From positions 1 to 64,000 of IMG/VR virus record IMGVR_UViG_3300045988_085326: 64,000 nucleotides of DNA. One strand, given 5' to 3'. Below are positions 1,894 to 60,505 of this stretch, one piece after another (position 1 is the first letter of the stretch; each line of letters begins with the position of its first letter). The notes under the pieces are model-generated. The model was given only the letters and a program-made list of their open reading frames with translations, did not search any database and was not told the DNA's origin. Origin of the DNA: a virus. A program made the position numbers and the translations under genes.

Positions 1894-1921
1894 TGATTTT
1901 TAAAAAAATTTTTGATATAAT
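1894..1921 (+). promoter_or_regulatory. Conserved phage promoter copy
   Basis: TTGATT, 16 nt, TGATATAAT, then the ATTTATATAAGAAATAAAGAAAA leader. Confidence 0.65.
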
Positions 1922-1970
1922 ATTTATATAAGAAATAAAGAAAAAACAAAGAGAGGAAAGGAATTAAATT

Positions 1971-2303
1971 ATGGCAAAAGGATGGACTTTAGTAGGAACT
2001 AACGCATCGGAGTTTGGAGATACTCGCACAAGAGAAGAGAAGAGACAAGATGCTGCTCGACAGAGCAAAGCTTTTAATCGTTTGATGGCTAAAACAAAGG
2101 TGCGTTCTTATGAAAAAATGATTGAGGATGCGGAAAAAGCTTATAATGCTAAGCAGGCTGAAGATGCGGCTTTACTTCAGGCATTCGCAGATAAAAAGTT
2201 AAAATCTAAGGCATTGATTAAGCAGGCACAGAGACTGAAAAGAAAACAGTCTGAAAAGAAAGCTGTTAAAGCACAGGCTAAGAAAGCGGTAGCTACCGCT
2301 TAA
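1971..2303 (+). CDS. Highly basic Lys/Ala-rich protein (110 aa), possibly a DNA-binding or histone-like protein
   Basis: Has a consensus phage promoter and an RBS. KAxxK repeats. A GNRA hairpin follows it. Confidence 0.6.
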   Translation: MAKGWTLVGTNASEFGDTRTREEKRQDAARQSKAFNRLMAKTKVRSYEKMIEDAEKAYNAKQAEDAALLQAFADKKLKSKALIKQAQRLKRKQSEKKAVKAQAKKAVATA

Positions 2304-2327
2304 TATAAAGGCGGGTAACCGCCATAT

Positions 2328-2400
2328 GGGGCATTAGCTCAGCTGGGAGAGCGCATCCCTTGCAAGGATGAGGTACAGGGTTCGAGTCCCTGATGCTCCA
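2328..2400 (+). tRNA. tRNA-Ala (anticodon TGC), carrying the G3-U70 identity pair
   Basis: Acceptor GGGGCAT/ATGCTCC; anticodon stem CATCC/GGATG; loop CTTGCAA; T-arm CAGGG-TTCGAGT-CCCTG. Confidence 0.85.
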
Positions 2401-2895
2401 CTATGCCGCATAAGCATTTTAGCGAATTAGCTACTCGCTAAAGAAGAAATGCAAAACTTGAATCTTATGGCTGAATGCCCTTTGAACGGGGTAAAGCGAC
2501 GTGAGTAATGGAGGGTGAAACTCCCCTTAAATGAAAGTCGATGGACATATAACAGAAAGCGGGCAGGAAGATTAACTAAATAGTGAGAAGTTCGGCGCTG
2601 GCGGACACTCTGGGAAGACTTGCTTATATATTACTGATGAATTGGCGTAGGCTAACCTGTGATATATTTGCAAGAAGGACTTGGAGAGAAGGTTGAAACA
2701 GTCGAGGCTGGCGGCAATGATGTTAAAAATCCTTTTTACAGAGTAGAGAAGAGATTATCTGTAGTTCAAACATCAGTGGAGGTTACAGAGTCCTCCTTAA
2801 CTTGATAAAGTTAATACGAACAAGTTGTAACTAGGGACCGATTTAGTTGACCTATGTAAATGATTTAAGTATAAAAATTGCGGGAAACCGCATAT

Positions 2896-2966
2896 GCCCT
2901 TATAGTTTAATGGTAAAACAAGAGATTTGTAACCTCTTGACCTTGGTTCGATTCCGAGTAGGGGCT
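2896..2966 (+). tRNA. tRNA-Thr (anticodon TGT)
   Basis: Acceptor GCCCTTA/TAGGGGC; D-arm GTTT-AATGGT-AAAC; anticodon loop TTTGTAA; T-arm CTTGG-TTCGATT-CCGAG. Confidence 0.7.
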
Positions 2967-3143
2967 TAAAGATACTATGAAGCAGCAAATATTAATTCAA
3001 AATTACAAGATAAAACATTTTATTTACTTTAAGGATGGGTGAGGAAACTTTTTCTCAATTACTACGTTTAATTATTGATAGTTTTAAAACATAGTCTTAT
3101 ATCAATAAGAGTAGAATTAAGACAATGTATAGTATCTTGTTAT

Positions 3144-3216
3144 GCACGTGTGGTGTTAGCGGCTAGCATCCCTGCCTTCCAAGCAGGTGGGACGGGTTCG
3201 AATCCCGTTACGTGCT
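3144..3216 (+). tRNA. tRNA-Gly (anticodon TCC)
   Basis: Acceptor GCACGTG/TACGTGC; anticodon stem CCTGC/GCAGG; loop CTTCCAA; T-arm ACGGG-TTCGAAT-CCCGT. Confidence 0.8.
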
Positions 3217-3670
3217 TTTACAATTTAATAGGCAAGTATTCTGCAATTATCCTAATTTGGAGAAATTACTTATAAAATTTGATGATTTTAAAAGATTATT
3301 GGTTCTTTCTTTTATAGGAAGCGTAGAAAATTACTACTTATATGAAGTGTCTAAGTGGTAAAACAACGTAAGTTAGAGCGACACTTTACTTGCCTAGTGC
3401 TCAAAATCCCTTTCCTATATAGGTTGCGGACGGACGATTGTCCGCAACCATTTTATGCCAAAAGTTGGTACTTAAAAGAAGGTCCGATTCCTTTATTTGG
3501 CAATCAATGAGAGACGCCGCAGCAAAACCAAATTTCAAATAATATTTGAGTTGGGTAATGAGTTAATTCTCATTTTAGTGTAGATATTAAGTTATCTAAT
3601 AGGCGAGTGAAGGTAATATATATAATTTTGTCTCTCGAAATTTGGAAATTATATACTATGCTTCACATTT

Positions 3671-3743
3671 GTGGATGTAGCCAAGCTGGTTAAGGCTAGG
3701 GACTGCAACTCCCTGACCGCAGGTTCGAATCCTGCCATCCACT
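3671..3743 (+). tRNA. tRNA-Cys (anticodon GCA)
   Basis: Acceptor GTGGATG/CATCCAC (perfect); anticodon stem AGGGA/TCCCT; loop CTGCAAC; T-arm GCAGG-TTCGAAT-CCTGC. Confidence 0.85.
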
Positions 3744-3969
3744 TTAAGCATATTCTGCAAAACATCTTATTTGATGATAGTCGCCGGACTACTTTCTGGC
3801 TCCAGCTAAGGGTTAGATTTCTGATAATTTTAGTAACCCTGAATTACAAAAATTATCTATGCTTAGTAACTTAAATTGATTTTTATTAAAATTTTTGATA
3901 AAATGTATATATAAACAAAAGGTAATGTAAATTACCAAATCTAAGAGATTAAAAGGAGAGAAAAGGGAT

Positions 3970-58870: not shown

Positions 58871-59061
58871 AAATACAAGTTGTTAAAGACCCAGTTCATG
58901 TAGCTGAAGTTAGAAGTAAATTAAAAGAAACTCAAGGATATTGTCCATGTGTTCCTTCATATGCTTGGAATGAAAGTACAAAATGTATTTGTCAAGATTT
59001 TAAAAATGCTCCTACAGGAGCTACATGTCATTGTGGATTATATATAAAGGTGGAAGAATAA
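58867..59061 (+). CDS. Small Cys-rich protein (64 aa)
   Basis: CPC...C-C...C-C motif. Coupled to nrdG. Confidence 0.45.
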   Translation: MKIQVVKDPVHVAEVRSKLKETQGYCPCVPSYAWNESTKCICQDFKNAPTGATCHCGLYIKVEE

Positions 59062-59447
59062 TGAGTGAAATAATGATGGGAACTTTATATGATATGAACA
59101 AAGCAGCTATCATTAATATGCCTAGCCTTACTAATTCAGAATTTAAAAAAAATTTAAAAAAAATAAAACAGTTTTTTTTAGATAAGACTGATAAATATTT
59201 TATGTTATTAAATAGAGAGACTTATAATTTTACTCTATTTAATTTAGGCAATAAAAATGAAATTGCTATGAAACAAACAATGGATGATTTTAAAGAATGT
59301 TTAGATAACCGCGGACGTGTAGTGTCTATAGAACAAGATTCCACAGGTAATTATGAAATATGGGTAGTAGATGATTTTAATGAAGCTTTAGTTTACTATT
59401 TATTTCCTTATGACCTTGGTGTTATTGAACATGGTACGGAGGCATAA
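59061..59447 (+). CDS. Hypothetical protein (128 aa)
   Basis: AAGGTGGAAG RBS before the ATG at 59061. The ORF-track start at 59025 has no RBS. Confidence 0.5.
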   Translation: MSEIMMGTLYDMNKAAIINMPSLTNSEFKKNLKKIKQFFLDKTDKYFMLLNRETYNFTLFNLGNKNEIAMKQTMDDFKECLDNRGRVVSIEQDSTGNYEIWVVDDFNEALVYYLFPYDLGVIEHGTEA

Positions 59448-59448
59448 A

Positions 59449-59709
59449 ATGCGTAAAATAGTTGGTGTGATAAGACCATTTGATATGAGACAAAATTTTT
59501 ATGTCTATGAAGATGGTAATAAATTAGCTTGTGAACAACCAAGAATGAACGAATTAAATGAAACAATATTTAGTCTTATGGAAGAATATAATGTTGTTCA
59601 ACTTGACCTTGTTGGTCCAAAGCAATACAATAGAGGATTAAGTAAAAAAATAAAAGAGACGGAAATGACTAAATTTAGTTCAAATAAATTAGAAATAAAT
59701 ATAGTATAA
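59449..59709 (+). CDS. Hypothetical protein (86 aa)
   Basis: GGAGG RBS before the ATG at 59449. Confidence 0.5.
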   Translation: MRKIVGVIRPFDMRQNFYVYEDGNKLACEQPRMNELNETIFSLMEEYNVVQLDLVGPKQYNRGLSKKIKETEMTKFSSNKLEINIV

Positions 59710-59722
59710 TAGGAGAAAAATA

Positions 59723-59965
59723 ATGGCAAGATATTTAATTCAAACAACTGAAGTATATAGGGTAGATAGTGAAGCTGAAGCAAAAGCTTTAATTGAAGAA
59801 GCAAAAGAAGAAGGTATTAGTAATTTAAAAAAATATAATTGTGAATATAAGAATCAAAAAGCTAAAGGTGAAATTATACAGGAATGGTATCGTGTAACTT
59901 TAACTAAAGCATTTACAGATGAAAAAGAACCAACTGAATCTGTTGCAATAAATTATGAAATATAA
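59723..59965 (+). CDS. Hypothetical protein (80 aa)
   Basis: AGGAGAAAA RBS. Confidence 0.5.
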   Translation: MARYLIQTTEVYRVDSEAEAKALIEEAKEEGISNLKKYNCEYKNQKAKGEIIQEWYRVTLTKAFTDEKEPTESVAINYEI

Positions 59966-59975
59966 GGAGACTATA

Positions 59976-60413
59976 ATGGAAATTAATATTAAACTTTTAA
60001 ATGAAAATGCTAAAGTTCCTACAAGAGGAAGTGAATACGCGGCAGGTTATGATTTATATGCTGCTACAGATTATGATATTGAAATTGCCCCTCATAGTAC
60101 AGTTAAGATTGGTACTGGAATTTCTGTAGAATTACCGAATGGTACATTTGGAGCTATTTTTGCTCGTAGTGGACTTGCGACTAAGAAGGGGCTAAGACCT
60201 GCTAACTGCGTAGGAGTATGTGATTCTGACTATCGTGGAGAATATATTGTACCAATGCATAATGATACAGACGAAGTAATGACTATTGCTTCTGGAGAAA
60301 GAATTGCACAGTTAATTGTTATGCCTTTTGTTGGAATTGAATTTAATATAGTAGATGAGCTAACTGAAACAAAACGTGGTGATGGCGGTTTCGGTTCTAC
60401 AGGTTCAATTTAA
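59976..60413 (+). CDS. dut: dUTP diphosphatase
   Basis: Motifs AGYDL, RSG, GVCDSDYRGE and RGDGGFGSTG. AAGGAG RBS before the ATG at 59976. Terminator at 60436-60470. Confidence 0.9.
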   Translation: MEINIKLLNENAKVPTRGSEYAAGYDLYAATDYDIEIAPHSTVKIGTGISVELPNGTFGAIFARSGLATKKGLRPANCVGVCDSDYRGEYIVPMHNDTDEVMTIASGERIAQLIVMPFVGIEFNIVDELTETKRGDGGFGSTGSI

Positions 60414-60435
60414 TAGATATAGAGATATAAAATAT

Positions 60436-60470
60436 AGAGTAGCACGCATTTAGCGTGCTATTTTTTTTAT
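60436..60470 (+). terminator. Intrinsic terminator after dut
   Basis: TAGCACGC-ATTT-AGCGTGCTA plus T8. Confidence 0.8.
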
Positions 60471-60476
60471 GTAAAA

Positions 60477-60505
60477 TTGACAAACTGAAAATTTTGTGTT
60501 ATAAT
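60477..60505 (+). promoter_or_regulatory. Consensus promoter upstream of ruvC
   Basis: TTGACA, 17 nt, TGTTATAAT. Confidence 0.75.

Follow-up and report, generated by a model that had tools for sequence, protein, structure and literature searches.

The 64,000-nt stretch of viral DNA analyzed here (IMG/VR record IMGVR_UViG_3300045988_085326, positions 1-64,000; hereafter the window) carries 24 copies of a repeat with the architecture TTGAyT-N17 (TRTG)-TATAAT. We consider it likely that these repeats are early or middle promoters of the host sigma-A type, near-optimal in every module, and that they also mark cassette boundaries. The polymerase that reads them would be the host housekeeping sigma-A RNA polymerase. 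The modules that appear near-optimal are TTGAyT, a 17-bp A/T-only spacer in which a T-run is followed by an A-run, the Gram-positive -16 TRTG/extended -10, TATAAT, a discriminator free of G and C, and, 7 nt past the -10, a predicted T(-1)A(+1) start. The promoter set is real and lies far above chance. It reveals no new regulatory RNA and no new type of element; the repeats are ordinary phage early promoters whose optimization is unusually complete.

A first-pass annotation of this DNA had listed 23 copies, all of which are present, each no more than 20 nt from where it had been placed; the first bases of their -35 elements are the start coordinates in Table 1. The span assigned to the set, beginning at 1894, leaves out the first copy at 1008. 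A position weight matrix (PWM) built from the sites gave 24 matches of at least 22 bits, on the + strand only, comprising the 23 listed copies and one further site at 58730-58772 (also called 58753). The scores span 22-45 bits, and a first-order Markov control gave 0.2 matches of at least 10 bits. With a core-only PWM restricted to the -35, -16, and -10 columns, 24 matches were found on the + strand and 0 on the - strand.

Alignment of the sites on the -10 gives the consensus TTGATTTTTaaTAAAAAtTwTGaTATAATATtTATATaAgAAA. The spacer, previously described as 16-17 nt, is 17 nt in all 24 aligned sites and 16 nt in none. At the -35, TT is found in 23/23 copies, G in 17/23, and A in 22/23 (7.1 bits), so that the claim of TTGAyT in each copy holds as TTGA.. 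in 17/23 and gives way to TTTATT-like hexamers in terminator-fused copies. An extended -10 had likewise been assigned to each copy. TG and TATAAT are each present in 20/23, and the remaining copies deviate, TAAAAT being found in 3/23; T stands at -16 in 21/23. At the seventh base after TATAAT, 22/23 copies have A, and the base before it is T in 19/23, as would be expected for a start site. Apart from the exceptions in Table 1, the sites are intergenic and lie 15-80 nt 5' of start codons. The promoter reading is well supported by the sigma-A consensus, the -16 TRTG/extended -10, the fixed 17-nt spacing, the strand bias, and the intergenic placement.

The probability that the matches are chance products of an A/T-rich genome is practically nil. 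A loose TTGACA/TATAAT scan was indeed not above shuffles (75 versus 74.4, 93 versus 99.2, and 108 versus 124.0 expected), and composition explains the sequence downstream of +8. Because the loose sigma-70 scan is unenriched in A/T-rich DNA, the signal resides in the full extended pattern. The shuffle controls already refute a chance origin: the one-strand PWM count exceeds the 0.2 expected, the 43-mer quoted in the first-pass annotation has 4 matches with up to 3 mismatches against 0.00 expected, and a 17-mer has 15 against 0.53. In addition, position-specific z values reach 15-47 (below), and placement and strand bias are kept in ~80 related contigs.

The copies fall into two classes. Class A comprises 13 sites (-10 coordinates 1031 to 25916) with a mean pairwise identity of 0.80 over -35 to +8, all located in the accessory region (window 1-26 kb), which contains RNA-repair and NAD-salvage genes. 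Class B comprises 11 sites from 27735 onward in the replication region, with a mean identity of 0.61. The description of more than 20 near-identical copies was thus too generous, as only 13 are near-identical and only 4 differ from the quoted 43-mer by 3 mismatches or fewer. The information in the motif amounts to 35 bits (44 in class A), compared with the 12.4 bits needed to specify 24 sites. Over all sites, 20 bits come from the -35, -16, and -10, 7.8 from the spacer, 5.0 from the discriminator plus +1/+2, and 2.3 from +3 to +8. The spacer and discriminator hold 11.3 and 5.9 bits, respectively, in class A and 5.2 and 1.4 bits in class B.

The extent of the conservation was determined by comparing column information and pairwise identity with within-row shuffles that preserve the composition of each sequence. 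Over all sites the spacer was position-specific with z ~20 and the discriminator plus +1/+2 with z ~15-17, and no position-specific signal was detected upstream of the -35 (z ~0). From +3 on, the 24 sites have only composition in common (z 0-1). The segment +3 to +8 (AAGAAA) is weakly position-specific in class A only (z 2.6-4.7), and from +9 on no position-specific signal was detected, class A included (z ~0). The conserved span therefore runs from the first base of the -35 through the T-run/A-run spacer and the A/T-only discriminator to T(-1)A(+1)T(+2). Conservation had been thought to continue for ~25 nt past the -10. Position-specific signal covers the first 8 nt that follow the -10, and only in the 13-copy class does it reach +8. 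A/T bias, for which a shuffled control had been proposed, by itself explains the sequence from +9 on but not the spacer, the discriminator, or the start. Only ~2-8 of the conserved bases are transcribed. As the conservation past the -10 lies mainly in the untranscribed discriminator and the start site, it points to DNA read by the polymerase and not to RNA.

This distribution bears on the possibility that the transcribed segment (AUAAGAAAUAAAG...) is a functional RNA leader, namely a translational enhancer, a site for an RNA-binding protein, or a polypurine 5' stabilizer. The leaders are A/G-rich and C-poor: the 16 nt downstream contain 63% A, 21% G, 14% T, and 1.8% C, beyond the 42% A and 7% C found upstream of operon-internal genes. 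The weak AAGAAA signal of class A points the same way, and polypurine 5' stabilizers reportedly described by Hue, Cohen, and Bechhofer in 1995 in early RNA of the B. subtilis phage SP82 offer a precedent. A functional RNA leader is nevertheless very improbable. There is no position-specific signal from +9, nor from +3 over all 24 sites, and predicted leader lengths vary from 0 to ~80 nt. The longest common leader is an exact 30-nt block at sites 1031 (promoter 1008) and 1916 (promoter 1893); at 1916 it precedes a protein gene, and at 1031 it precedes tRNA-Gln with neither an open reading frame (ORF) nor a Shine-Dalgarno (SD) sequence. The presence of the identical block before a tRNA operon argues against a translational enhancer. 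An Rfam search of the window returned 11 tRNAs only and no RNA-leader family. The shared leader element proposed in the first-pass annotation is mostly unsupported by these results, with composition alone shared after +2 (after +8 in 13 copies), and a discrete RNA element or translational enhancer appears unlikely.

Linked variation between copies is a further point against an RNA leader. Each alignment column was permuted independently, which breaks linkage between positions. Class A contains 5 pairs with up to 3 mismatches, compared with 0.56 expected (P ~0.0015), and one pair identical at 43/43 positions (7399 and 19695, P ~0.001). In these two copies a discriminator G co-occurs with an identical spacer. 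Elsewhere, ATTATTATATAAT is common to three sites without TG, and 12244 and 22739 have 21 nt in common that reach into the terminator stem. Exact stretches common to promoter copies measure 19-43 nt. The linkage of variants across positions shows recent copying or gene conversion between some of the copies, and indicates that the identity at +1 to +8 hitch-hikes with copied promoters.

A functional role for leader composition as such is plausible. Escape tends to be the limiting step at promoters close to consensus. The A-rich, nearly C-free leader (15-80 nt) plausibly helps the polymerase escape from a very tight promoter, because Y-G initial-pause motifs are scarce in sequence of this composition. 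The 5' untranslated region would also stay unstructured up to the SD, since a purine-only leader cannot fold. The pause site of lambda PR' is a -10-like hexamer that has A as its second and T as its sixth base and lies in the initially transcribed sequence. A sigma-dependent pause or Q-type site of this kind was rejected here, as the candidate hexamer TATAAR at -1 to +5 has the final T in 1/23 copies only. In large-scale data the first 10 transcribed bases alter escape by orders of magnitude (PMC5961368; PMC12464699), and slow initially transcribed sequences are marked by T's and TG motifs (PMC5961368).

Terminator hairpins stand directly upstream of 9/24 promoters; the other 15 have none. The hairpins are stable (-14 to -23 kcal/mol). 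Eight of them come as close as a few bases to the -35 (promoters 12244, 12526, 15162, 17522, 22739, 25893, 27712, and 43577), and the ninth lies 16 nt upstream of promoter 60477. In the fused copies the T-run of the -35 and spacer (often TTTATTTTT) serves as the terminator tail. Terminator-promoter fusion is common in relatives as well. The compact junctions would insulate transcription units of 1-6 genes each. The notion that almost every accessory gene forms an independent cassette of promoter, gene, and terminator is an overstatement, with units of 1-6 genes and a terminator at 9/24 promoters.

The G+C content of the window is ~30%, and nearly all of its coding sequence lies on the + strand. 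Eleven tRNA genes lie at 102-3743. The accessory region (26 kb) encodes TROVE/DUF2828-like, PARG/macro, phosphoesterase, SPFH/flotillin-like, and major-vault-protein (MVP)-like (837 aa) products, as well as Thg1, an HD protein, RNA ligase, NAPRTase, a NadD-like protein, and NAD synthase. In the replication module are genes for topoisomerase II subunits, a DnaB-like helicase, primase, a RecJ-like exonuclease, a Sak4-like annealase, a Dda-like helicase, NrdD, and a 1314-aa PolC/YorL-type polymerase. This polymerase shares 39.6% identity with its counterparts in SPbeta-group phages and in Enterococcus phage VRE9_3, and the replication module is syntenic with that of VRE9_3. Judged by this module, the phage is akin to VRE9_3 and, more distantly, to SPbeta. 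No DNA-level match to cultured phages was found by megablast with window 1-20000, kinship being seen at the protein level only. Matches in genome contigs were confined to gut metagenome bins labeled uncultured Bacilli or Clostridium sp., which resemble phage contigs. The best reading of the window is that it belongs to a large uncultivated phage whose host is a low-GC Gram-positive gut bacterium. A screen of ~50 window ORFs revealed neither a sigma factor nor a phage RNA polymerase.

Its relatives comprise ~80 IMG/VR contigs of 100-175 kb with polymerases 53-99% identical to that of the window. Promoter sites were chosen in these contigs on core elements only, which gave 258 sites on the gene strand and 39 on the other. 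The T-run after the -35, the A-run before -16, the A/T-only discriminator, and the tA start recur in 204-211 distinct sites. For 204 sites the spacer reached z 47, the discriminator z 30, and the transcription start site (TSS) z 45, with z ~5 beyond it. Positions +3 to +8 of the relatives' sites are 67% A and 1% C and hold little positional information. In the cultured phage VRE9_3, 11 such promoters are present on the early strand and 0 on the other. A pattern common to the whole phage group is better explained by the host polymerase recognizing it than by a phage-specific operator.

Such an operator is the other possible source of the extra conservation, and the conservation beyond the hexamers, located in untranscribed spacer and discriminator, leaves room for a regulator. 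The extra block of class A (spacer ATTTTTAAtAAAAAT, discriminator, and +1 to +8) would then be bound by a phage DNA-binding regulator overlapping the promoter, perhaps the product of the ORF at 38740 or at 41017, which would switch the accessory/early class jointly, as MrpR does at SPBRE. SPBRE of SPbeta is a repeat in the spacer or leader of ~10 early promoters and is bound by the master repressor MrpR (PMC10516654). The higher information content of the class A spacer and discriminator relative to class B is in keeping with an operator, as are a spacer consensus that forms a 7-1-7 A/T palindrome and a -10 and discriminator that form ATATAA-N3-TTATAT. The conserved bases, however, are low-complexity A/T runs, which yield palindromes for free, and the same pattern is found in ~200 promoters of relatives with polymerases 53-81% identical, a better fit to a polymerase-level feature. 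Both ORFs had been annotated as winged helix-turn-helix proteins. The 91-aa product (38740-39015) was modeled as three helices and a beta-hairpin with a predicted local distance difference test (pLDDT) score of 63, and winged-helix DNA binders make up all of its best fold matches, none of them significant (fold-search E-values of at least 0.24). The single-sequence model of the product of 41017-41397 (pLDDT 41) was unusable. Neither has a helix-turn-helix call in Pfam or PHROGs, or a significant Pfam, PHROGs, or PDB sequence match. A specific sequence resembling an operator was not detected. We regard the operator as unlikely.

The analogy with SPBRE and MrpR was rejected. Both cases involve a repeated element of ~15-25 bp in the spacer or leader of early promoters (~10 in SPbeta) of a large phage with a YorL-type polymerase. 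The motif that we derived from 7 SPbeta promoters, CAAATACAAAwAATATGTATAwA, is built on a specific dyad (ATACAAAwAATATGTAT) at a variable position in the promoter and has no sequence likeness to the motif of the window. No homologue of MrpR (YopR), AimR, YonO, or YopP, of an integrase, or of the others sought was found by tBLASTn in the window, which is part of a genome, or in the fetched loci.

Rearrangement and indel junctions in the relatives are associated with promoter elements. The closest relatives of the accessory region, contigs L091, L093, and L096, have an MVP gene 78% nt-identical to that of the window and a different cassette order. In all three, the MVP cassette is placed after the Thg1 unit, i.e. 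transposed relative to the window. Accessory gene order and content vary among the relatives at this level of MVP identity, and the segment 32.5-38.8 kb is colinear. Homology blocks start at 12526 and 25893 (6 relatives each), in both cases the first base of the -35, and a block shared with L091 ends exactly at 10007, again the first base of the -35. L091 also contains a chimeric junction, whose upstream flank corresponds to the window 5' of promoter 17522 and whose downstream flank corresponds to the window 3' of promoter 12526, with the switch between the flanks inside the promoter. Contig L004, which has 95-98% DNA identity to the window, differs from it over 24 kb by two indels only, each of a single ORF and each adjoining a promoter. 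The first (window 48777-49345) ends 19 nt before the -35 of promoter 49365, and the second (window 50866-51598) has its right edge exactly where the -35 of promoter 51599 begins. Gene adjacency was lost in 72% of locus comparisons at promoter-bearing junctions versus 41% at promoter-less junctions, a count of small, non-independent numbers that is dominated by few junctions and ignores phylogeny.

The ORF at 48794-49345 sits between the arms of what in L004 is a single terminator hairpin (window 48756-49363 versus L004 8340-8400). This position indicates that the ORF was inserted into, or deleted from, the loop region of the terminator abutting promoter 49365.

Because junctions in the relatives fall at promoter elements, the promoters appear also to serve as cassette boundaries. 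The promoter elements are probably both cassette boundaries and sites of homologous recombination, a mechanism that we infer from the junctions. Recombination genes in the window encode the Sak4-like annealase, the RecJ-like exonuclease, and the Dda-like helicase.

The closest known counterparts are the promoter-early stem-loops (PeSLs) of T4-like myoviruses, recombination between copies of which yields mini-circles (Arbiol et al. 2010, PMC2839356; Comeau et al. 2014, PMC4122927). Both are conserved composite elements built on an early promoter of the sigma-70 type that is near consensus and has N17 spacing; an SD and a start codon come after it and, in 9/24 of the present copies, a terminator stem-loop lies directly 5' of it. 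The repeats are numerous in both, concentrated in variable accessory-gene regions (here 13 near-identical copies in 26 kb), and adjoin indels, replacements, and displaced ORFs between close relatives. The differences are that the present elements belong to a Gram-positive-infecting phage with a PolC-type polymerase and not to a T4-like lineage, that a stem-loop is present in only 9/24 copies, that the stems have no common sequence (no GGGG..CCCC type), that the terminator U-tract overlaps the -35 itself, and that recombination is here predicted from sequence. Our verdict is that the promoter elements would be a Gram-positive-phage counterpart of PeSLs.

A stronger proposal is that the terminator-promoter units are the crossover sites of an integron-like, PeSL-type cassette exchange in large Gram-positive gut phages and that the class A block could be, in addition, a common operator for a phage winged-helix regulator. 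We hold this combination to be doubtful. If exchange of this type occurs, the Sak4-like annealase and RecJ-like exonuclease possibly drive crossover, and counter-defense and RNA-repair cassettes would be shuffled between co-infecting relatives. To our knowledge, a PeSL-type mechanism has so far been described only in T4-like phages.

Several observations weigh against the assignment of the repeats as host sigma-A promoters that double as cassette boundaries. The TSS, timing, and polymerase are predictions from sequence. For the spacer and discriminator, a host optimum is inseparable from a conserved phage factor. VRE9_3 has the T-run but a less evident A-run, so the spacer A-run may be lineage-specific. 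Only 9/24 copies have a stem-loop. Homology blocks that start at a -35 are partly expected, since all of the promoters resemble each other; synteny also breaks at many promoter-less junctions; and both L004 indels would fall at promoter junctions by chance with a probability of ~0.07. Promoter similarity within loci is barely above that between loci (0.46 versus 0.43, all relatives pooled), a comparison that is diluted by loose core matches and was not relied on.

Three further phage systems invite comparison. The early promoters of the SPO1 host-takeover module, reportedly treated by Stewart et al. in 1998, and similar early-promoter sets of Gram-positive lytic phages (for context, PMC6873191) belong to many short accessory/takeover operons with strong near-consensus sigma-A promoters carrying TG, strong SDs, and terminators between them, as here. 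The lineage differs, and the elements of the window are spread over at least 60 kb and are not confined to a terminal redundancy. T5 early promoters (N25 and others), in which Kammerer et al. in 1986 reportedly placed functional information in the initially transcribed region, resemble the present set, which is likewise predicted to be very strong and escape-limited, with an output that would depend on an A/T-rich, purine-rich initially transcribed sequence; in both sets the similarity extends past the -10. Unlike in T5, the copies in the window share nothing more than base composition in the transcribed part beyond +2 to +8. Excess information at T7 promoters was reportedly noted by Schneider and Stormo in 1989. 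T7 and the window both have repeated promoters with about twice or more the information needed (here 35 versus 12.4 bits). T7 promoters are read by a phage polymerase, whereas the excess here lies in regions that contact sigma-A or affect DNA shape and stems partly from recent copying.

The analysis provides a clean, sequence-defined set of early promoters with predicted starts for a family of uncultivated gut and rumen phages of 100-175 kb, which can be used for annotating transcription units and for choosing strong portable Gram-positive promoters. It suggests that the idea of promoter-terminator shuffling, developed for T4-like phages, extends to an unrelated Gram-positive phage lineage. 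If such shuffling takes place, it would help explain the exchange of counter-defense cassettes (tRNA repair, NAD salvage, PARG, and the vault-protein-like gene).

Table 1. Predicted promoters and terminator-like hairpins of the window, with the genes that the promoters are predicted to drive
Feature	Coordinates	Strand	Score or stability	Remarks
Class A promoter	1008..1050	+	42.4 bits	Drives tRNA-Gln (tRNA at 1134) and following tRNAs; no ORF/SD downstream
Class A promoter	1893..1935	+	45.2 bits	Drives 110-aa ORF 1971-2303, then tRNA-Ala and following tRNAs
Class A promoter, -10 TAAAAT	3876..3918	+	38.3 bits	Drives TROVE/DUF2828-like gene 3970-5454 (Pfam/PHROG)
Class A promoter	7399..7441	+	44.5 bits	Drives PARG/macro, phosphoesterase, NTase-HTH protein (7453-10020)
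Class A promoter without TG	10007..10049	+	40.0 bits	Overlaps stop codon of upstream gene; drives small ORFs and SPFH/flotillin-like gene
Class A promoter, TTTATT -35, without TG	12244..12286	+	36.7 bits	Fused to terminator 12220-12246
Class A promoter	12526..12568	+	42.8 bits	Fused to terminator 12496-12531; drives MVP-like 837-aa gene
Class A promoter	15162..15204	+	36.1 bits	Fused to terminator 15132-15163; drives 5-6 gene unit including Thg1
Class A promoter	17522..17564	+	36.9 bits	Fused to terminator 17497-17523
Class A promoter	19695..19737	+	44.5 bits	Drives 19753-21013; 43/43 identical to 7399..7441
Class A promoter	21027..21069	+	40.4 bits	Drives RNA ligase gene 21090-22301 (Pfam RNA_ligase)
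Class A promoter	22739..22781	+	38.0 bits	Fused to terminator 22715-22740; drives NAPRTase, NadD-like, NAD synthase unit
Class A promoter	25893..25935	+	40.1 bits	Fused to terminator 25870-25895; drives kinase/phosphoesterase unit
Class B promoter	27712..27754	+	28.3 bits	Fused to terminator 27686-27711; drives PhoH-like gene
Class B promoter	32949..32991	+	27.2 bits	Drives topoisomerase II subunit genes
Class B promoter	38422..38464	+	29.0 bits	Predicted +1 is A of ATG of 63-aa ORF 38457-38648; leaderless candidate
Class B promoter	38637..38679	+	26.5 bits	Perfect TTGACA-17-TGATATAAT, 12/12 hexamer match; drives 91-aa winged-helix-like ORF 38740-39015
Class B promoter	40937..40979	+	29.1 bits	Drives 126-aa ORF 41017-41397
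Class B promoter	41394..41436	+	36.2 bits	Drives 41475-43538, including Sak4-like annealase
Class B promoter	43577..43619	+	28.9 bits	Fused to terminator 43543-43576; drives DnaB/primase/RecJ unit
Class B promoter	49365..49407	+	32.6 bits	Drives Dda-like helicase unit
Class B promoter	51599..51641	+	38.8 bits	Drives PolC-like DNA polymerase gene
Extra candidate promoter, class B range	58730..58772	+	26.6 bits	Not listed previously; within ORF 58403-58870; weaker -10 TAATAT
Class B promoter, last on +	60477..60519	+	22.7 bits	Terminator-like hairpin 16 nt upstream
Intrinsic-terminator-like hairpin	12220..12246	+	-14.3 kcal/mol	T-tail is -35/T-run of promoter 12244
Terminator-like hairpin	12496..12531	+		Overlaps -35 of promoter 12526
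Terminator-like hairpin, bidirectional	15132..15163	+	-18.4 kcal/mol	Abuts promoter 15162
Terminator-like hairpin	17497..17523	+	-16.8 kcal/mol	Abuts promoter 17522
Terminator-like hairpin	22715..22740	+		Abuts promoter 22739
Terminator-like hairpin	25870..25895	+		Abuts promoter 25893
Terminator-like hairpin	27686..27711	+		Abuts promoter 27712
Terminator-like hairpin	43543..43576	+	-22.6 kcal/mol	Abuts promoter 43577
Terminator-like hairpin	60440..60460	+	-16.6 kcal/mol	16 nt upstream of promoter 60477

An ATG lies exactly at the predicted +1 of five promoters (38457, 10042, 12561, 15197, and 41429). The one at 38457 opens the 63-aa ORF, a candidate leaderless mRNA, and the other four open tiny or unclear ORFs.

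The 837-aa protein (12605-15118, +) matches the major-vault-protein shoulder domain PF11978 (9.6e-22) and the vault repeat PF17795. Its gene adjoins the SPFH/flotillin-like gene (10661-12214, +), and the protein is also encoded in nine related viral contigs at 53-83% identity. The same ORF was considered as a YonO-type phage RNA polymerase and rejected, as it has no similarity to one and is MVP-like instead.

A single promoter-to-terminator unit (22847-25883, +) encodes NAPRTase, a NadD-like nucleotidyltransferase, and NAD synthase, which together make up a complete Preiss-Handler NAD+ salvage pathway and may counter NAD-depleting host defenses. The first gene of another class A unit (7453-8223, +) encodes a microbial-type PARG catalytic domain with a weak macro-domain match, possibly a counter-defense function that reverses ADP-ribosylation. 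A tRNA/RNA-repair set is distributed over several cassettes (102-3743, 3970-5454, 15760-17493, 21090-22301, and 26358-27400) and consists of the 11 tRNAs, a TROVE/Ro-like protein (DUF2828 and DUF7788), a tRNA amidotransferase-like protein, Thg1, RNA ligase, an AAA_33 kinase, and metallophosphoesterases.

Within the + strand early region, a minus-strand island at 5461-7298, bounded by a bidirectional terminator at 5461-5488, encodes an XkdX-family protein, a tail-fiber-like 312-aa protein, and two small ORFs. In nine relatives (L051, L058, L064, L069, L076, L082, L083, L088, and L090), the polymerase match is ~5.1 kb long instead of 3.9 kb, or is split, which suggests insertion of an intron, an intein, or a homing endonuclease. 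The window itself encodes a GIY-YIG homing endonuclease at 39074-39988.

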